Shown: positions 2,856 through 56,944 of the stretch, piece after piece
Numbering within the stretch: the first letter of the stretch is position 1
Layout: each line of letters opens with the position of its first letter
Assembly (NCBI GenBank): GCA_035627595.1
Contig: DASPLK010000005.1
Coordinates: forward strand, 69,513-133,512
DNA from: Minisyncoccota bacterium
GTDB lineage: Bacteria > Patescibacteriota > Minisyncoccia > Phycocordibacterales > Phycocordibacteraceae
DNA length: 64,000 bases
Reading direction: 5' to 3'
Translations under genes and position numbers: made by a program
Notes under the pieces: generated by a model
Told to the model about the DNA's origin: nothing
The model's input: only the letters and a program-made list of their open reading frames with translations
Database searches by the model: none

Positions 2856-2883
2856 AGCTGACCGTCTGGGACGTTATTTGAAC
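2856..2883. repeat. direct repeat copy 1 (agctgaccgtctgggacgttatttgaac)
   Basis: 26/28 identical to 3314-3341; overlaps the stop codon of the nucleotidyltransferase gene. Confidence 0.7.
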
Positions 2884-3287
2884 TTTTTTGAACAATACTC
2901 ATCAATAAGTTGCAGATCTCGAAGATCCTTCTCGCGTTTTAGCTGTAGCTTTGCATCCTTAAGCTGATCAAGACTCATGAAAGGAATCCCTTCTTGGAGG
3001 TAAGCTCCAGGTAGCATTTCTTCAAGGGTAGGATTCTCCTTCATAAAGTCTAGGCTTTGCTTTGCACCTGCTGAGTGATCAGGAGTATCGAGCGTAGTCG
3101 AATACTTTTCATTCCGAATCCACCCGTATTCGCTTTCAAGTCTTGAGAAAAGATCAGGCGATACGAGGAGATCAATATCGCCGGCCTGACGGATTCCGAA
3201 TAGTTCCAGGATCGCACTTCCGCACACCATGTAATGCCCCTCCGGCAAGCCAAGGGCACGGACACGCTCGATATAGGTACTAGCCAT
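2874..3287 (-). CDS. Pol-beta-superfamily minimal nucleotidyltransferase
   Basis: 137 aa; G-S-x11-D-I-D motif (GSAILELFGIRQAGDIDLLV) of minimal NTases; gene bracketed by 28-bp direct repeats. Confidence 0.45.
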   Translation of the reverse strand: MASTYIERVRALGLPEGHYMVCGSAILELFGIRQAGDIDLLVSPDLFSRLESEYGWIRNEKYSTTLDTPDHSAGAKQSLDFMKENPTLEEMLPGAYLQEGIPFMSLDQLKDAKLQLKREKDLRDLQLIDEYCSKKFK

Positions 3288-3313
3288 AAAAAAATTATGG
3301 CACGAGAATGACG

Positions 3314-3341
3314 AGCTGACCGTCTGGGACGATATTCGAAC
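3314..3341. repeat. direct repeat copy 2 (agctgaccgtctgggacgatattcgaac)
   Basis: Same orientation as copy 1; 27 nt upstream of the nucleotidyltransferase start; a weaker third partial copy lies at 3386-3402. Confidence 0.7.
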
Positions 3342-3377
3342 CTCAATATGTAGATAATGCTACCTTTGACGCTTTAC

Positions 3378-4178
3378 CTATACGTGAGCTGACGTCCTGC
3401 TCTTAAACGCTTTTGGTTCCTTGAAGCCATCTAATTGGTCAGGGTGATTAGCTAAGAGATAGCGCCTTATGACTTTTGCCATATATCGATTCTTTAAACG
3501 AAAAGCCCTGACTTCCGCTGGAACGTCACTGAAGGGCTGAGTGGTTTTCGATTTATGACAATCGGGGTCCTTAAAGGTGCCCGAATGTTTGGGACAGAGC
3601 GTCAGATAGTCATGTTGATGCTGATGTATATGATGCGCCTCTCCTGATTTTATGTGCCCCAATATCCTATGGTAATCATCCGACAGTTCACTCAAGACCT
3701 CATCGTCCATTCTCCAAAGGAACACGTATTTGATTAAGTACTCTGATCTCGGAATACTTGGGTCATCTACATACCATACGAACAGCACGTACTTGTTCTT
3801 CTTATACAAAGAAGATTCGCGTATGTCCGCATTCTTGTACTCCGAATTGTAATTAATGATGTTTAGAGATAGCGGCTCCTTTACGCTAAGCTGGCCATTC
3901 TTAAGTAGCTTCAAAGGGCTTGTCTTAAGCTCAACATCCAAGTGCTCTATGTCAGCTGCAGCTGTGTTGTTCTTCCCTATGCCAAAATATCCCTCTTCAA
4001 TCACATAACCGACAAAGGCTTTCGTGCTGACACGAGTAGCCTCATCACTGTCAACTATAGAGGGCATTATCTCCCTCAAGGTCTTACCCTCAAGATCTCG
4101 ACGAGCAATCTCCTCGAGTTCCTGGACGGTCTTTATGCTGCTCAGGTCAATGCGGGCTATATACAGAAAGTGTAACAC
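3378..4178 (-). CDS. MutH/Sau3AI-family (PD-(D/E)xK) endonuclease, putative restriction endonuclease
   Basis: 266 aa, GTG start; LDVELKTSP motif matches the MutH catalytic DxExK region (MutH: LGVELKTIP); preceding G-rich segment GYFGIGKN resembles the MutH N-terminal motif; divergent from the m5C methyltransferase gene. Confidence 0.6.
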   Translation of the reverse strand: MLHFLYIARIDLSSIKTVQELEEIARRDLEGKTLREIMPSIVDSDEATRVSTKAFVGYVIEEGYFGIGKNNTAAADIEHLDVELKTSPLKLLKNGQLSVKEPLSLNIINYNSEYKNADIRESSLYKKNKYVLFVWYVDDPSIPRSEYLIKYVFLWRMDDEVLSELSDDYHRILGHIKSGEAHHIHQHQHDYLTLCPKHSGTFKDPDCHKSKTTQPFSDVPAEVRAFRLKNRYMAKVIRRYLLANHPDQLDGFKEPKAFKSRTSAHV

Positions 4179-4258
4179 CCTGAATATCGCCGCAAGATTA
4201 TTACCGTGTAAATGGCCGACTTGATCAAGTTTTATCCAGCTGATAGAATGGGCAAATC

Positions 4259-5530
4259 ATGAAATCAGGCGGCGATAAGATAAGAGTGGTCGAGCTATTC
4301 GCTGGAGTTGGCGGGTTCAGATTAGGGCTCGAAGGATCAAAGGGTAACCGTAAACCGCATCATTCCCACTTTGAGACCGTATGGTTCAACCAATGGGAAC
4401 CCTCCACCAAACGACAGCACGCACATGAGACCTACGCTAGGAATTTTGGTCATATCGATGAATACACCAATGAGGACATCGCGAAAGTGACTGGTCAGGT
4501 TCCTGACCACGATCTCCTAGTAGGTGGCTTTCCTTGCCAGGACTATTCAGTGGCCAGGAACCTCTCTTCTTCTGCAGGCCTTGAAGGAAAGAAAGGTGTG
4601 CTTTGGTGGTCAATCCACGAGATCTTGAATATAAAGGGTTCCAAGGCACCTAACTATTTGATGCTTGAGAATGTAGACCGTCTACTTGTCTCCCCTGCTA
4701 GTCGTCGAGGCAAGGATTTTGCGATTATCCTTTCTTCGCTTATTAAGCTCGGCTATGTGATCGAGTGGCGTGTTATCAATGCTGCTGAGTACGGATTTCC
4801 ACAAAGAAGGAAGCGGACATTCATACTGGGATACAAAAAAGGTTCACCTATAGAAAAGAGGTTCCGAAAACTTAACGACCCTGAGAAGTGGCTCATAAAG
4901 GATGGCGTCGTACAGCAATCATTCCCTGCTGTCTTAGACGGAGATATCCGAACATTCACGATAGACTCTGATCCCGTCATTGTTTCTAAGGAGTTCAACC
5001 TTGAGAAGCCCCAGACCTCCCCATTCGCTAATACTGGTGTCATGGTCGATGGAAGGGTCTATACCGCCCGAGTAACTCCGAACTATAAGGGAAAATACGC
5101 AACTCTTGGTGATGTACTTCTTCCAGAATCCGAGGTTCCGAAGGAATACTACATTGATAAGGAAGATCTTCCCCGCTGGGTATACCTAAAGGGAGCGAAG
5201 AATGAACCTAGGAAGGGTTCTGATGGGTTCGAGTTCACATACAAAGAGGGCGCGATGTCATTCCCGGATTCCCCAACAAAGGCCTCGAGGACTATCATCA
5301 CCGCTGAAGGCGGTAAGACACCTTCCCGTTTCAAGCACGTCGTTAAGACAAAGAAGGGTTATCGACGTCTAACCCCTATCGAATTGGAACGGCTTTGCAT
5401 GTTCCCTGACAATCACACACAGGGCCACCCTGATGCGAGGCGTGCTTTCTTTATGGGCAATGCTCTTGTCGTTGGTGTAATAGATGGACTAGGCAAAGCC
5501 CTAGTAAAGCTCCACACATCTAAGATTTAA
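4259..5530 (+). CDS. dcm: DNA (cytosine-5)-methyltransferase
   Basis: 423 aa; motif I ELFAGVGGF; motif IV GGFPCQDYS; motif VI ENV; motif VIII QRRKRTFILGY; C-terminal GNALVVGVI. Confidence 0.9.
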   Translation: MKSGGDKIRVVELFAGVGGFRLGLEGSKGNRKPHHSHFETVWFNQWEPSTKRQHAHETYARNFGHIDEYTNEDIAKVTGQVPDHDLLVGGFPCQDYSVARNLSSSAGLEGKKGVLWWSIHEILNIKGSKAPNYLMLENVDRLLVSPASRRGKDFAIILSSLIKLGYVIEWRVINAAEYGFPQRRKRTFILGYKKGSPIEKRFRKLNDPEKWLIKDGVVQQSFPAVLDGDIRTFTIDSDPVIVSKEFNLEKPQTSPFANTGVMVDGRVYTARVTPNYKGKYATLGDVLLPESEVPKEYYIDKEDLPRWVYLKGAKNEPRKGSDGFEFTYKEGAMSFPDSPTKASRTIITAEGGKTPSRFKHVVKTKKGYRRLTPIELERLCMFPDNHTQGHPDARRAFFMGNALVVGVIDGLGKALVKLHTSKI

Positions 5531-5975
5531 TTGCGGACCGCACACGCTTCGCAGCCAAAGAAGGATTCTTCTTGATCTCGCATTCCCATACGACAACGAC
5601 CTTCCATCCATCCTTTCTTAGTCCCGACTCTTTTCGTGAGTCACGCTCTTTATTCCTCTTGAACTTCTCCTTCCAGAATCCCTGATTCGATTTTGGTATA
5701 GGTAGCTTACAGTGAGTGCATCTATGCCAGTAACATCCATGCACGAATACAGCTACCTTCTTACCTTTGAATACCAAATCAGGCCTCCCGTGTTCTGTCT
5801 TGAGATGTAGCCGATAACCCCTGGCCCCTAGACTAAAGAGTGCTTTCCGCAACGCTATCTCAGGCTTTGTATTCGAACCTTTATTCGCACTCATAACATT
5901 AGAGGTCTTCCCTTCTTTCGGAATTGGAGATCTTCCGTCGCGAATATAGGCTCTTCTCGATTCGAGTCTATTCAT
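5520..5975 (-). CDS. vsr: very-short-patch-repair (Vsr) endonuclease
   Basis: RPDLVF...KKVAVFVHGCYWHRC...VVVVWECE matches the Vsr core; a start at the internal Met (5894) is likely; 3' end overlaps dcm convergently. Confidence 0.85.
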   Translation of the reverse strand: MNRLESRRAYIRDGRSPIPKEGKTSNVMSANKGSNTKPEIALRKALFSLGARGYRLHLKTEHGRPDLVFKGKKVAVFVHGCYWHRCTHCKLPIPKSNQGFWKEKFKRNKERDSRKESGLRKDGWKVVVVWECEIKKNPSLAAKRVRSAIKS

Positions 5976-6066
5976 GCATACAGGATAAGCTTGTACGTGT
6001 ATCCTGCCCAGAGTAACTTATAGCAACCCAATTTGCTCTCATTTTCACGTAGGACGTATTAATACA

Positions 6067-6097
6067 GAAGAGCCCCGATTGTGGATCGGGGCTCTTC
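6067..6097 (-). terminator. stem-loop terminator downstream of the GHKL ATPase gene
   Basis: gaagagccccgat tgtg gatcggggctcttc, 13-bp perfect stem. Confidence 0.55.
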
Positions 6098-6111
6098 AAA
6101 TGATGAGTAAT

Positions 6112-7665
6112 TTAGTCCAGAAGGACCTTGAGATTCTTGGACATGGTTTCCAGCACCGCATCAAGAAGTGCGGTAGTCTCCGCCGTGCTGTACTTCAGCT
6201 TCGCTTCCCCAAGAGCGTAGGCTAGGAAGGACACTGCGTTCACGAGCTCCTGCTCGTCACGCTGAGCAAACACAACCTTCTGGAAGAAGGGATGTTCATT
6301 ATTCCAGGTGATGACTGTCATGCCACCTTCTTTCTCTGCTGTGAATATATGTCCATGTGCGCCAAGGGCAGCATTCTCGAAGCGAGCTGTGCCACTAAGA
6401 GTGCCAGCACCACGCTGATGCGCACCGACTTGGTAAGCAGACACCTCCACTACCCCCCTTGGGGACCTGCGTTTTGATGAAGGCGGGTTCGCGGCCTCAA
6501 TAGACGGTGCTCGGTCCAGCAACTTCGTCTTCTGGGCAATTGACCCTTCTGCTTCAGAGAAGTCGAGCTCGGTAGACGCCACAGGAGTCTTCCTTCGAGA
6601 GGAGTACTTTGCGCGCAGCCGGTCAACTTCTGGCATTACTTCCTTGGCAATCTTGTCGAGGAATGCTTGGGACGGGTTCACATTGTGCTTTGTGTAGTTG
6701 ATTCCCATTACCGCATCAAGCCGACCTGACACGAGAATTTCAGCACGCACACGGTTCAGGCTGTTATGGCGCACCCACAACCCGTTAAGGTCGTCCGCTG
6801 AGGCGACCTGACGATAATTGCGCAGCACATAGAAACCTTGCGTATCCTGTCCAACAGTCTTCTTCTTTCCCTTTGCTGGAAGTTCGTCAGGCAAACGAAA
6901 GACCTTCACTGTGAACTGCTCAGAAACTCCGGATCCAAGCTTGATTTCGAATGTCTTATTGAACTCCAGGTCCGAGGAATAACCTGATTCCTCGACATAA
7001 CGACCATCGAGCCACATAGGGTCAATGATTGATGCTTCCTTGCCGTTTACGACAATCTTCTTCCCAGCACGAATGAAGTAGCGGTAGATTTCGCCGAGAT
7101 GGTGGCGCAAACCATTCTCAAATTCCTCAATCTCGACACGTTCAAGCTGGTCGCAGTTCTTAAGAACAACAACGGTCCCGTGCGCCCCCAGTCCGTAACC
7201 TTGTGCGATTTTCTCCTGCTCGGATGTAGCCACACCGCGATGAATATCGAAAGAATTCGATTCTTCCATCACATCCAAATCCATAATTCCGACAAGAACT
7301 GGTGACCCTTCCGTCCGGGTGTAGACCTCAACACGCTTTGCAATTGAGATTGAGCCAGTCACAAGACCCATGCCAAAACGACCGAGATCTGAGTCCACAT
7401 TGCGTTCGGTGAGTGATCCGAGACGAAGGGCCTGTTCCAAGACCTTCTCATCCATTCCCGCACCGTTATCGCACACGACTATGGTCGCCTTCCCCGCCTT
7501 CTGATCCCCAGAAATCAGCACTTCGACGACCGATGCGTCTGCATCGAGTGAATTATCGACGATGTCGGAGATTGCGACCTTATTCTCGTAACCACTGTAC
7601 CGAAGAGAAGCCATTAGCTTCCCTGCGTTTGGCGTATTCGCCTGATTGAACTTTTCGTTCTGCAT
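6112..7665 (-). CDS. MutL/MORC-like GHKL (Bergerat-fold) ATPase
   Basis: Motif I IVDNSLDA; motif II VVCDNGAGMD; motif III GRFGMGLVTGSIS as in the MutL N-terminus. Likely start is Met at 7665 (MQNEKFN) with GAGG 13 nt upstream; the ORF track extends to 7827 through the repeats. Confidence 0.7.
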   Translation of the reverse strand: MQNEKFNQANTPNAGKLMASLRYSGYENKVAISDIVDNSLDADASVVEVLISGDQKAGKATIVVCDNGAGMDEKVLEQALRLGSLTERNVDSDLGRFGMGLVTGSISIAKRVEVYTRTEGSPVLVGIMDLDVMEESNSFDIHRGVATSEQEKIAQGYGLGAHGTVVVLKNCDQLERVEIEEFENGLRHHLGEIYRYFIRAGKKIVVNGKEASIIDPMWLDGRYVEESGYSSDLEFNKTFEIKLGSGVSEQFTVKVFRLPDELPAKGKKKTVGQDTQGFYVLRNYRQVASADDLNGLWVRHNSLNRVRAEILVSGRLDAVMGINYTKHNVNPSQAFLDKIAKEVMPEVDRLRAKYSSRRKTPVASTELDFSEAEGSIAQKTKLLDRAPSIEAANPPSSKRRSPRGVVEVSAYQVGAHQRGAGTLSGTARFENAALGAHGHIFTAEKEGGMTVITWNNEHPFFQKVVFAQRDEQELVNAVSFLAYALGEAKLKYSTAETTALLDAVLETMSKNLKVLLD

Positions 7666-7670
7666 ATTTG

Positions 7671-7706
7671 TTTTATGCCTCGACGACGCGTGAGCGCCAC
7701 AAAGAC
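7671..7706. repeat. 36-bp direct repeat A (ttttatgcctcgacgacgcgtgagcgccacaaagac)
   Basis: 34/36 identical to 7790-7825; sits in the 5' leader/RBS region of the GHKL ATPase gene. Confidence 0.75.
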
Positions 7707-7789
7707 GGTTATGAGCACATTTGTAAAGCACAAAGGCCGAGCCGCAGAAGCGACCGGCAAAGAAGTTAAGTAGAGATATCCATAGGTAA

Positions 7790-7825
7790 TTTTGTGCCTC
7801 GACGACGCGCGAGCGCCACAAAGAC
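7790..7825. repeat. 36-bp direct repeat B (ttttgtgcctcgacgacgcgcgagcgccacaaagac)
   Basis: Direct copy of repeat A, 119 bp away; only two copies, so not a CRISPR array. Confidence 0.75.
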
Positions 7826-7860
7826 AATTACTGATAACAGCCGTAGTATACCGCGCATGA

Positions 7861-8292
7861 ACAACCTCGTCAAAACAGGTAACGCGTCCAGGACGCTCGA
7901 GACTAAGTATCCCTTCCCTTCCGGAGATTGAGTCCCGTCTCACTGACGGCTTCTCTTCCGGCCTAATTCGCAAAGAACTCTGCCAAGAGAAGATGAGAGA
8001 AGTCGCTAACAAACGCGCAGAACTAGAGCAGCAGATTGAAGATACTGAATCAAAGAACGGAGTATCATCTGTGACTTTCGAACAGATACAAAACGTGTTT
8101 ATAGAAGGCAGTAGAGCCGCAGAAAAGTATTTGCTCGCCGATGATACGGAAAAGCGAGAGATGCTCCAAAAACTACTTTCGAACGCTACTATCGAAAACG
8201 GAAAAGTGGCGCAGATACAATACAAAAGTCCGTATCAACTACTTGCACTGACCCCTAAAAACGCTGACTTTTCGACTTTGCTGCGGGACTAG
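7861..8292 (+). pseudogene. gene remnant abutting the tRNA-Gln 3' end (possible recombinase/integrase C-terminal fragment)
   Basis: Frame is open from 7861 with no start; first ATG at 7993 gives a 99-aa charged coiled-coil-like tail ending inside the tRNA 3' end; no catalytic motifs visible. Confidence 0.25.
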
Positions 8293-8351
8293 GACTCGAA
8301 CCTAGATAAACGCCTCCAGAGAGCGCTGTCCTACCATTAGACGATCCCGCA
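8281..8351 (-). tRNA. tRNA-Gln (anticodon CUG)
   Basis: Cloverleaf with U1:A72 and G73 (Gln identity elements); D-arm CGUCUAAUGGUAGGAC; anticodon loop CUCUGGA; T-arm CUAGGUUCGAGUCCUAG; about 71 nt. Confidence 0.6.
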
Positions 8352-8454
8352 ATCAGCAAAGCGGCAGGAGCCGCTCTGCTAGCTAGAAGATACACGAAAA
8401 TAGGCTCGGAGAAAAGCCTGCGGCTCATGCTATAGTTTCGGGACAACTGAATAC

Positions 8455-8551
8455 GTATCAAGAGCGCGGCGAGGCATCTGGGCCTTTGAACCGCCAGCAA
8501 CCATTCCAAACGGAACCGGTGCTTCCAGCCCCAACCCATGGGGAGCGATGC
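8455..8551 (+). promoter_or_regulatory. SAM-I (S-box) riboswitch aptamer upstream of metK
   Basis: GUAUCAAGAGCGCGGCGAGG...UGGGCCUUUGAACCGCCAGCAACC...GGUGCUUCCAGCC...GAUGC matches the SAM-I core (UAUCAAGAG, GGAGG, GGCCC, GAA.CC.GCAACC, GGUGC..UCC, P1-closing GAUG). Confidence 0.55.
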
Positions 8552-8565
8552 AGTAATGTCTCACG

Positions 8566-8605: not shown

Positions 8606-9658
8606 ATGTTCCACCTGCTTACCCACTACACTACCGAAAGCGTTACCAGAGGCCATCCTGATAAGGTGTGCGACCAGATTTCAGACGCCATTCTCGACGC
8701 CTGCCTAGAGCAGGATCCCGCTAGCCGCGTGGCGGTGGAGGCGTTTGGCAGCCACGGAACGCTTATGATCGGAGGCGAGATCACAACTCGCGCATCGGTA
8801 GACTATGCGGACATAGCGCGGAAGGTATACGAGGATATCGGATACACGGAGCCCCTGGACATCCTCTCCCGTGTCGTCACCCAGTCAGGTGATATCGCGC
8901 AGGGTGTCAACACAGGTGGAGCGGGCGACCAAGGCATCATGTACGGCTACGCGACCAACGAGACTGAAGAGTACCTTCCTCAGGGCGTAGTCCTCTCGCA
9001 CGCGCTTGCCAGGAAGATTGAAGACCTGCGTACGAGCGGCACTCTCCCCTACCTAAGACCAGACGGCAAAACGCAGGTGACCATTCGTAACGGAAAACTC
9101 CTCACCGCTCTCACATCGACCCAGCACACAGAGGAAGCGGAGCTTGAGTCCATTCGAAAAGATCTCAAGGAACACCTCTTTGCGCCGGTGCTTGGTGATA
9201 CATCTGAGATAGAGCTCCTCGTTAATCCGACCGGACGCTTCGTCCAGGGAGGCTTTGAGGCGGACGCTGGTCTCACGGGCCGCAAGATCATGGTGGATAC
9301 ATACGGAGGTCTCCTGCCGCATGGCGGCGGCGCATTCAGTGGAAAGGACTCCACAAAGGTGGATCGCTCAGCTGCATACATGTGCCGCTTCGTTGCCAAG
9401 AACCTAGTCGCAAATGGATACGGCACCAAGGTGCTCGTCTCGGTCGCATACGCCATCGGCCGCGTGGAGCCGGTGATGGTAGAAGCGTTCGATGAGTCTG
9501 GAAAGAACCTCTCGGATATTGTGAACAAGCACTTCGACTTCCGCCCCCGCGCAATCGAAGAGCGTCTCTCACTCAGAAAGGCCCAGTTCAGGGACACAGC
9601 TGCGTACGGACACTTCGGCGTGGAAGGAAGACCCTGGGAAGATATAGTTGCGCTCTAA
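8606..9658 (+). CDS. metK: S-adenosylmethionine synthetase
   Basis: TESVTRGHPDKVCDQISDAILDA N-terminal motif; GGGAFSGKD signature; about 350 aa. The ORF-track start at 8486 overlaps the riboswitch and is rejected. Confidence 0.9.
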   Translation: MFHLLTHYTTESVTRGHPDKVCDQISDAILDACLEQDPASRVAVEAFGSHGTLMIGGEITTRASVDYADIARKVYEDIGYTEPLDILSRVVTQSGDIAQGVNTGGAGDQGIMYGYATNETEEYLPQGVVLSHALARKIEDLRTSGTLPYLRPDGKTQVTIRNGKLLTALTSTQHTEEAELESIRKDLKEHLFAPVLGDTSEIELLVNPTGRFVQGGFEADAGLTGRKIMVDTYGGLLPHGGGAFSGKDSTKVDRSAAYMCRFVAKNLVANGYGTKVLVSVAYAIGRVEPVMVEAFDESGKNLSDIVNKHFDFRPRAIEERLSLRKAQFRDTAAYGHFGVEGRPWEDIVAL

Positions 9659-52424: not shown

Positions 52425-52501
52425 CCATCCTTAGCTCAGTTGGTTAGAGCACGGAGCTTATACCTCCGCGGTCCCTGGTTCGAGTCCAGGAGGATGGACC
52501 A
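52425..52501 (+). tRNA. tRNA-Ile (anticodon UAU), CCA encoded
   Basis: CCAUCCUUAGCUCAGUUGGUUAGAGCA; anticodon stem CGGAG/CUCCG with loop CUUAUAC; T-arm CCUGGUUCGAGUCCAGG; acceptor CCAUCCU/AGGAUGG; ACCA. Confidence 0.7.
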
Positions 52502-56531: not shown

Positions 56532-56944
56532 AGGGGGTGACCGGTTTTGACGGTCTTGATCTTTGAGAGACGTGCGACGTAGTGGAAGCATGCTGACCAC
56601 TTTAATCCCGCAGGCAAAAACAAACGCAAACAACACTGTTGCACGCGGAGTACTCTCACCTATCCAGATGAGCGATCTTACTCCGTTCGCTTTCGCGCGC
56701 GCCTAACGGCCCCCGCATAGCGGCGTTGTATTCGTCCCGGTTCCCATAGCGGACGAATACGGCGGAATCTTCTATGGGACCAGCAAGGAGAGTGCCTCGG
56801 CTCTTGGCTCGGTATTAGAGACTCAGGAGGGAGCGGTTTCGTCCGCGTTCCTACGCCCCTCCTTACAATGAACGTGGGCTACGCGTCGTAGATTCGTCCT
56901 TAAAGAGAGATTCGGACGGGGGTTCGATTCCCCCCACCTCCACA
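56532..56944 (+). ncRNA. ssrA: tmRNA (transfer-messenger RNA)
   Basis: 5' GGGGGUGACCGGUUUUGACGG like the E. coli GGGGCUGA...UUCGACGG; 3' GGACGGGGGUUCGAUUCCCCCCACCUCCAC tRNA-like T-arm/acceptor; internal ORF ending ...PFAFARA-UAA; directly downstream of smpB. Confidence 0.8.

Follow-up and report, generated by a model that had tools for sequence, protein, structure and literature searches.

The open reading frame that runs into the 3′ end of the tRNA-Gln(CTG) gene is a predicted catalytically dead C-terminal quarter of a large serine integrase, not of a tyrosine integrase. It forms the right border of a 5.4-kb restriction-modification island (2857–8283) within the 64-kb stretch of DNA analysed here (hereafter, the window). 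Together, the remnant and the island very probably represent a decayed small integrative, rolling-circle plasmid-like serine-integrase element of Patescibacteria. The free form of this element is seen as a circle, and the recombination steps are reconstructed from sequence comparison. In the free circle, the integrase ORF crosses attP (…TLL followed by (A/T)VWDDIRT… and a stop). Recombination by the integrase would take place between attP and the very 3′ terminus of a tRNA gene (in this case tRNA-Gln, with the core GCTG) and would leave the tRNA whole; the integrated integrase gene would then terminate a few codons into the antisense tRNA (…LLRD stop), and its final ~13 codons, together with the other attP arm, would move to the far end of the element and form attL. 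In this genome, a deletion or replacement would have taken the Rep gene and integrase residues 1–361, and an immobile 5.4-kb island with restriction-modification and defence cargo would be left over. The island keeps both att arms; self-excision should be impossible but a related integrase could in principle move the island in trans. A decayed integrase at an island border is in itself a fairly ordinary finding. With both borders now mapped, the island is no longer a guess, and the lack of a tRNA duplicate is explained. Beyond the window, the results suggest that Patescibacteria harbour a large group of small integrative replicons that appears to be undescribed.

The integrase remnant and the island in the window

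The frame on the + strand follows a TGA codon at 7858–7860 and contains 143 open codons from 7861 to the TAG at 8290–8292. The first in-frame ATG, GTG or TTG is the ATG at 7993, which yields a 99-aa ORF. Re-reading of the ORF thus agrees with the first-pass annotation, apart from the translation itself, which starts with TTSSKQVTRPGRS and differs by one residue from the TTSSKTVT given there. The frame also ends inside the 3′ end of the tRNA gene as claimed: given that the 3′ end of the tRNA lies at 8280 (ARAGORN) or 8281 (Rfam), the overlap is 12–13 nt with the stop codon and 9–10 nt for the sense codons alone, and the acceptor and T-stem contain the final three codons of the ORF and the stop.

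Searches of Pfam and NCBIfam with the fragment yield no useful match, and only PHROGs gave a lead, namely a match to phrog_95, “integrase” (profile positions 471–566 of 651, E = 1.5e-7). A tblastn comparison with intact integrases aligns positions 7909–8283 with residues 362–486 of the 499-aa large serine recombinase of locus L003 (80.8% aa and 79.8% nt identity, E = 5e-60), so that the open frame is not a chance one. The earlier claim that the fragment is a decayed integrase marking an island boundary, for which a search against recombinase profiles had been proposed, is thus borne out. The complete frame is longer than the homologous part on both sides: 48 non-homologous nucleotides precede this part, and three codons encoded by the tRNA (R D stop) follow it. 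The remnant covers the second coiled-coil helix and the C-terminal region, both homologous to members of the large serine recombinases (phrog_95, the L003 protein and the alignment of the L096 protein with SPbeta integrase), and its final ~25 nt are the integrase-side arm of attR. The fragment, which comprises residues 362–486 only, contains no Resolvase domain (Pfam), and tblastn with intact integrases detects no other integrase part anywhere in the 64-kb window. No Recombinase or zinc-ribbon domain is found in the window copy either (Pfam, NCBIfam and tblastn), which makes it a fragment derived from a large serine recombinase and not a functional member of this group. In a large protein collection, the fragment retrieves just five short products, and the full gene became apparent on reading the contigs that encode them; a scan of viral_contigs detects no relative.

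The features of the island and its borders are as follows.

2857–2884, + strand: outer far-end (attL-type) site, repeat copy D3-1; core GCTG at 2857–2860, arm accgtcTGGGACGTTATTTGAAC
2874–3287, − strand: 137-aa ORF with weak nucleotidyltransferase similarity (PF14907, E = 0.041); GC 0.461
3315–3357, + strand: inner far-end (attL) site, repeat copy D3-2; core GCTG at 3315–3318, arm accgtcTGGGACGATATTCGAAC
3378–4178, − strand: Sau3AI-family/MutH-like type II restriction endonuclease, 266 aa (PF02976, 1.3e-22; REase_II, 5e-41)
4259–5530, + strand: C5 cytosine DNA methyltransferase (PF00145, 1.4e-58; MTase_II, 1e-152)
5520–5975, − strand: Vsr very-short-patch repair endonuclease (PF03852, 1.1e-22)
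6112–7665, − strand: GHKL-type ATPase, MzaB-like, 517 aa from the ATG at 7665 (HATPase_c_3, 2.5e-22; MzaB, 3.2e-24)
7671–7711 and 7790–7830, + strand: two copies of a 41-nt direct repeat, 90% identical, the only copies in the 64-kb window
7909–8283, + strand: integrase remnant, residues 362–486 of the 499-aa L003 large serine recombinase (tblastn, PHROGs)
8280–8283, + strand: attR core GCTG, the probable crossover region (attP/attL/attR alignment)
8280–8351 (ARAGORN) or 8281–8351 (Rfam RF00005, 58.1 bits), − strand: tRNA-Gln(CTG), the integration target, intact

Both far-end sites are co-oriented with the remnant. In the integrase frame, D3-1 encodes L T V W D V I stop, which is a decayed version of the integrase C-terminus, and D3-2 encodes the detached tail L T V W D D I R T S I C R stop (3316–3357), that is, LTVWDDIRTSICR stop; if the remnant were fused to the inner site, the integrase would again end in …FSTLLTVWDDIRTSICR. 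The nucleotidyltransferase-like ORF sits between the two sites, its stop codon overlapping D3-1. The endonuclease corresponds to the N-terminal catalytic half of Sau3AI alone (NF040973, 6.4e-52, 177 bits against a curated cut-off of 300), whereas the C5 methylase is clear; the two may form a Sau3AI-type II restriction-modification system. The GHKL ATPase matches the NCBIfam MzaB model at 1.3e-27, far below its cut-off, and the 41-nt repeats, located between the start of this gene and the truncation point of the integrase, may be its promoter or operator sites. No Rep gene is detected in the island (Pfam, NCBIfam). The GC content is 0.479 for 2857–8279, compared to 0.547 for the window and 0.54–0.57 for the flanking genes. 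The first-pass annotation had taken everything leftward of the remnant for cargo. This holds for the GHKL, vsr, dcm, MutH-like and nucleotidyltransferase genes, all located inside the att sites, but not for the 106-aa ORF, the FAD oxidase and the lipid kinase on the left, which lie outside the far-end sites and hence outside the island. Since the left flank is not syntenic in loci L099 or L102, the left boundary is drawn from the far-end motif and GC only.

In the Logan assembly of SRR7003767 (L013, L101), the island forms a separate contig (window positions 2880–8304), and the neighbouring contig ends at 2909, with a 30-nt overlap. These contig ends imply branches of the assembly graph at both ends of the island; they were dropped as evidence of presence or absence because the break points do not fit the att cores.

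Intact relatives, the free circle and the attachment sites

A scan of one genome per species identifies ten loci, all in Patescibacteria MAGs, six of which encode intact large serine recombinases of 482–500 aa with the N-terminus MKYILYCRKST…QVLSLESQ; altogether, the family includes 2,358 proteins at E ≤ 1e-20. The full-length relative L096 contains Resolvase (PF00239, 1e-20), Recombinase (PF07508, 1e-11) and Zn_ribbon_recom (PF13408, 5e-8) domains, and its closest solved structure, by sequence similarity, is that of SPbeta integrase (E = 2.7e-10). The alignment with the latter reaches the coiled coil, and the start of the remnant falls within its second helix. In several relatives (L098, L099, L102 and L001), the integrase is encoded next to a Rep protein, e.g., the L099 Rep with matches to PF23343 (2.1e-19), RepSA (1.6e-8) and phrog_3419 (2.9e-31). 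In locus L001, the homologue of the remnant comes after a frameshifted Recombinase/Zn-ribbon ORF and runs into tRNA-Gln(TTG). A further, distantly related serine recombinase is encoded in locus L003 (19391–20344), ~9 kb rightward of the first one, to which it is 32% identical over its first 300 residues.

Intact integrases of 487–500 aa end in, or run through, a tRNA gene on the opposite strand (L004, L005, L007–L010, L099 and L102), with a stop codon ~13 nt inside the tRNA or reading on through it. The target is tRNA-Ser (TGA, GGA or CGA) for the relatives at 51–62% identity and tRNA-Gln for those at 71–87%. Given that the integrases of intact relatives also run into a tRNA 3′ end, the overlap between the ORF and the tRNA is native geometry; of the earlier view that a truncated ORF abutting a tRNA is a footprint of decay, the decay of the integrase stands but the overlap is no sign of it. 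The int-proximal junctions of L002, L003 and L094 run into a tRNA-like fragment instead of a full tRNA.

Sorting by script of the best 120 of the 2,358 family matches yields four classes of C-terminal tails: 57 read into the antisense tRNA (xSN, the T loop read backwards), 26 stop within about four codons past the core (six of these end in LLRD, like the frame in the window), 26 have a longer, unsplit tail of the form …LL(A/R)(V/A)(W/L)D(D/E)(I/V)R(T/K)…, and 11 are unclassified. Thus, 83 of these best 120 members stop in, or read into, the antisense tRNA. The integrated 487–490-aa form retains all Pfam domains. Many of the long unsplit tails finish with a conserved LREAG; for example, the 117-kb contig L100, which also contains very long ORFs and HTH genes, encodes an unsplit 517-aa member with the tail …WDDIRNALLTSS…LREAG. 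A 520-nt contig, L095, contains an integrase 3′ fragment without a tRNA that is identical to the window sequence up to GCTGCGGG and then continues in frame with RALDEVRTVLLAGKSEF…, an unsplit tail variant with a different arm sequence.

The unsplit form is observed in a circle. The 497-aa integrase P0011 is encoded on two Logan contigs (L096 and L097) from two samples, each 5,897 nt long with a 30-nt terminal overlap; when rotated, the two contigs match without a single mismatch and represent one 5,867-bp circle. In the L096 circle, the integrase ORF crosses attP (…ctttGCTGgccgtcTGGGACGATATTCGAAC…) into the tail LLAVWDDIRT…; the DNA that is read through is …cgacttt GCTG gccgtcTGGGACGATATTCGAAC…, and the unsplit ORF of both contigs reads …TLLAVWDDIRTRLP stop across the site. 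The first 24 bases of the D3-2 arm in the window are identical to the attP of this circle at 23 positions. The attP site thus splits the integrase gene: the ORF is unsplit in the circle, and the tail is found at the far end in integrated copies.

The right-hand part of the circle site, the far-end motif TGGGACGWTRTYYGA, occurs in 8 of the 95 loci scanned, all of which are loci of the integrase family or the island contig of the window itself (L013), and it is absent from all 80 metK loci. The motif is always on the strand of the integrase, 0.2–5.8 kb upstream of it. Looser patterns reveal further copies in L001, L002 and L102. Translated in the integrase frame, the motif is the missing tail with a stop, for example RGAWDDVRIALSLAYI stop in loci with a tRNA-Ser target and LLAVWDDIRTNLAIY stop in L003.

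Comparison of attP (L096, L098), attR (the window, L099, L001) and attL (window positions 2857 and 3315, L003, L001, L002) shows that GCTG alone is common to all; in the loci with a tRNA-Ser target, (T)GCGG takes its place. GCTG is complementary to tRNA positions 71–73 together with the first base of the trailer. In L004 and L012, tgg, the CCA encoded by the tRNA gene itself, lies to the left of the attL core. This 4-nt core would place the crossover at the very end of the tRNA and attP inside the 3′ end of the integrase ORF. A short shared core with no long identity between attP and attB would fit the large serine recombinases.

With up to 3 mismatches allowed, the 64-kb window contains a single match to a 22-mer from the 3′ end of the tRNA. 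The first-pass annotation, which likewise had not found a duplicated tRNA 3′ segment, is upheld in this respect, whereas the 15–25-nt tRNA copy that it expected as attL is replaced by a 4-nt core and the element's own arm, at 2857 and 3315. An alternative interpretation of the D3 repeats as displaced 3′ fragments of tRNA-Gln, with a crossover in the T loop, was rejected because elements located in different tRNAs have a conserved sequence right of the core and because D3 reads in frame as an integrase tail. Tools that seek repeats of 10 nt or more at tRNA genes will miss such islands.

The two far-end sites in the window are 458 nt apart, and a single integration does not explain them. Several integrated relatives also contain more than one far-end motif, 0.4–3 kb apart (L003 at 2270, 3074 and 6109; L102 at 926 and 1350, i.e., 424 nt apart), and each of the free circles L096 and L098 contains one. 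The multiple copies suggest repeated or tandem integrations that left short modules behind.

Content of the tRNA-Gln site and alternative histories of the island

Two relatives, L099 and L102, share the right flank of the window (metK-pyrG-ftsX-ftsE), and both have tRNA-Gln(CTG). The amino acid identities to the window are as follows.

metK (L102 only): 72%
pyrG (L099 and L102): 76–78%
ftsX (L099 and L102): 64–65%
ftsE (L099 and L102): 83%
290-aa ORF (L102 only): 71%

In both loci, an intact Rep-integrase element is found 3′ of the tRNA gene in place of the restriction-modification block. In L099, an HTH gene is followed by a 70-aa ORF, a rolling-circle Rep and a 488-aa integrase ending in LLRD; at the same position in L102, there are small ORFs without a family match, Rep and a 488-aa integrase. 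The tRNA-Gln site thus is a recurrent insertion point with variable content. This is the opposite of what the first-pass annotation had named as speaking against an insertion, that is, relatives with the same genes at this tRNA and no flanking repeats. These two relatives were found through integrase matches. A metK-anchored metagenome scan (80 loci) was uninformative for synteny because the best MetK identity is 77% and in none of the 80 loci is tRNA-Gln next to metK. Between tRNA-Gln and metK in the window there is a SAM-I riboswitch (RF00162, 49.1 bits, 8452–8555, + strand), so that the coding start of metK is the ATG at 8606 and not the TTG at 8486 of the mechanical ORF list; an exact-sequence look-up of MetK from ATG 8606 returns no record.

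The defence genes might not be original cargo. A later insertion of the defence block into an integrated element, with replacement of Rep and the first three quarters of the integrase, is a real possibility, even if it falls well short of being the probable course of events. The intact elements L099 and L102 and the L096 circle carry Rep and small ORFs, with no restriction-modification genes or other defence cargo, and the cargo of the window has no homologues in the first twelve loci of the integrase family, save for weak dcm/vsr matches in L002 and L009. Furthermore, the GC content of the GHKL gene (0.518) is higher than that of the rest of the island, and defence genes directly abut the truncation point both in the window and in L002, a second decayed case, in which a far-end motif accompanies an Eco47II endonuclease, a methylase and an integrase cut off near residue 398. 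However, in L001 an EcoRI-type methylase and GmrSD are located between the attL motif and a near-complete Rep-integrase pair, which indicates that defence genes can be genuine cargo in this family of elements. In addition, no second mobile-element signature (transposase or inverted repeats) is seen around the block in the window.

For the reading preferred here, a decayed element that lost its Rep gene and most of its integrase, the state of the remnant itself has to be accounted for. The 125 homologous codons contain no stop or frameshift, and dN/dS between the remnant and intact genes is 0.07–0.17, as low as between intact genes (0.08–0.26), which points either to a recent deletion or to continuing constraint on the piece. 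Under the second option, the 99-aa ORF from ATG 7993, which gene callers predict as a product (P0001), would be a functional small protein maintained by selection, e.g., a coiled coil that interferes with incoming related integrases. The independent truncations in L002, L012, L094 and L095 keep the same C-terminal ~85–125 residues, which is compatible with this idea. Nevertheless, it appears improbable. The truncation points vary (residue 362 in the window and 392, 398, 403 and 413 in the other remnants), with no common start codon or ribosome-binding site evident; no known family in Pfam or NCBIfam matches such a stand-alone protein; and with dS of ~1 between lineages, low dN/dS is expected after a recent truncation. 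The 3′ end would be kept in any case, as the neighbour of the tRNA and as the attR arm: the simplest reading is that the remnants retain their 3′ part since deletions reaching further right, into the end that abuts the tRNA, would damage the latter.

The possibility that the block is ancestral, with no insertion, and that the open frame is a chance or degenerate host ORF, is very slight. It draws on the fact that no empty site (attB) was found for this genome or any close relative, as well as on the uninformative metK scan, but it conflicts with the highly significant similarity to integrases, the family-specific att motifs at both ends of the island, the fall in GC across the block and the different content in relatives that share the right flank. 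Finally, a classical tyrosine-integrase remnant of a tRNA island with a duplicated tRNA 3′ segment as attL, in line with the general rule that tRNA-linked islands mostly use tyrosine integrases, can be considered refuted, given that no tyrosine-recombinase (Phage_integrase) match is detected (Pfam, NCBIfam), all homologues are serine recombinases and the tRNA duplicate is missing from the window.

Comparison with known integrases and integrative elements

The decayed element described here belongs with the large serine integrases (phiC31, Bxb1, A118/LI and SPbeta SprA), with which its intact relatives share the Resolvase, Recombinase and zinc-ribbon domains and the coiled coil; the very short core common to the att sites is what would be expected for a 2-nt staggered crossover. 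Serine integrases mostly target protein-coding genes. Unlike these enzymes, the present family targets the extreme 3′ end of tRNA genes, its attP lies inside the integrase ORF so that integration swaps the C-terminal tail, and the carrier is a rolling-circle Rep element of ~4–6 kb from Patescibacteria; the window copy, unlike phiC31-type integrases, lacks any catalytic or DNA-binding domain.

The closest parallel to the split gene comes from the SSV-type (type I, “suicidal”) integrases of archaeal viruses and plasmids, in which attP is located in the coding sequence and is translated, so that, after integration into a tRNA gene, the two ends of the element each hold one portion of the integrase gene, one large and one small (PMC7253208). 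This architecture had been described as confined to these archaeal tyrosine recombinases, “so far restricted to archaea” (PMC7253208). The likeness consists in an attP within the integrase coding sequence and separation of the gene upon integration into a tRNA. The differences are that the enzymes here are serine recombinases from Patescibacteria MAGs and that, whereas SSV-type genes are split into two inactive pseudogenes, only ~10–30 C-terminal residues are detached here, so that the integrated copy keeps all recognised domains. In cluster N and P mycobacteriophages, attP is positioned toward the 3′ end of a phage ORF, where it also overlaps a host tRNA gene, and integration alters the C-terminus of the encoded protein (PMC5764923, citing Broussard et al. 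2013). In these phages, it is the repressor gene that is split, the integrase is of the tyrosine type and the truncation removes a degradation tag; here, it is the tail of the integrase that changes.

Among other rolling-circle replicons that integrate into tRNA genes, the pSAM2-type integrative plasmids (AICEs) similarly combine a rolling-circle Rep (PF23343, RepSA) with an adjacent integrase, integrate at a tRNA 3′ end and exist both as a small circle and as an integrated copy. However, pSAM2 has a tyrosine integrase, a long identity segment and transfer genes, and no transfer genes are seen in the elements analysed here. Classical P4-like tRNA islands resemble the island in the window in having an integrase remnant at a tRNA 3′ end, low-GC cargo and defence genes, but differ in the recombinase family and in possessing a 15–25-nt direct repeat of the tRNA end, in place of which the borders here consist of the 4-nt core and the element's own arm. 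No account of tRNA-targeting serine integrases in Patescibacteria was found in a literature search, and the architecture of the family appears to be undescribed.

It is tempting to speculate, although we consider the complete scenario rather unlikely, that this family is a bacterial serine counterpart of the archaeal “suicidal” integrases: the ORF would span attP in more than 2,000 Patescibacteria integrases, and the tail swap would act as a switch of direction or stability (integration versus excision), with no separate directionality factor. Because the ORF spans attP, the free circle would make a full-length enzyme with a conserved WDD(I/V)R… tail, and the integrated copy would end in antisense-tRNA codons. 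If this is true, dead islands that retain both att arms, such as the one in the window, would stay mobilisable in trans. Serine integrases are in wide use for genome engineering, and this architecture suggests a testable way of controlling their direction.

Some minor observations concern other RNA genes of the window and the tRNA-proximal junction of a relative. ARAGORN predicts a tRNA-Ile with the anticodon TAT at 52425–52501 and a 411-nt tmRNA at 56533–56943 with a long tag peptide (ANNTVARGVLSPIQMSDLTPFAFARA). In L011 (10369–10558 and 3676–3845), a GC-rich segment of ~170 nt is located between the end of the integrase and tRNA-Ser and is flanked by a 19–20-nt duplicate of the tRNA 3′ end (cggacggggtgagattcg); at least the first 91 nt of this segment recur, with 100% identity, beside the far-end motif of the element, and it looks like a miniature insertion in the T loop.
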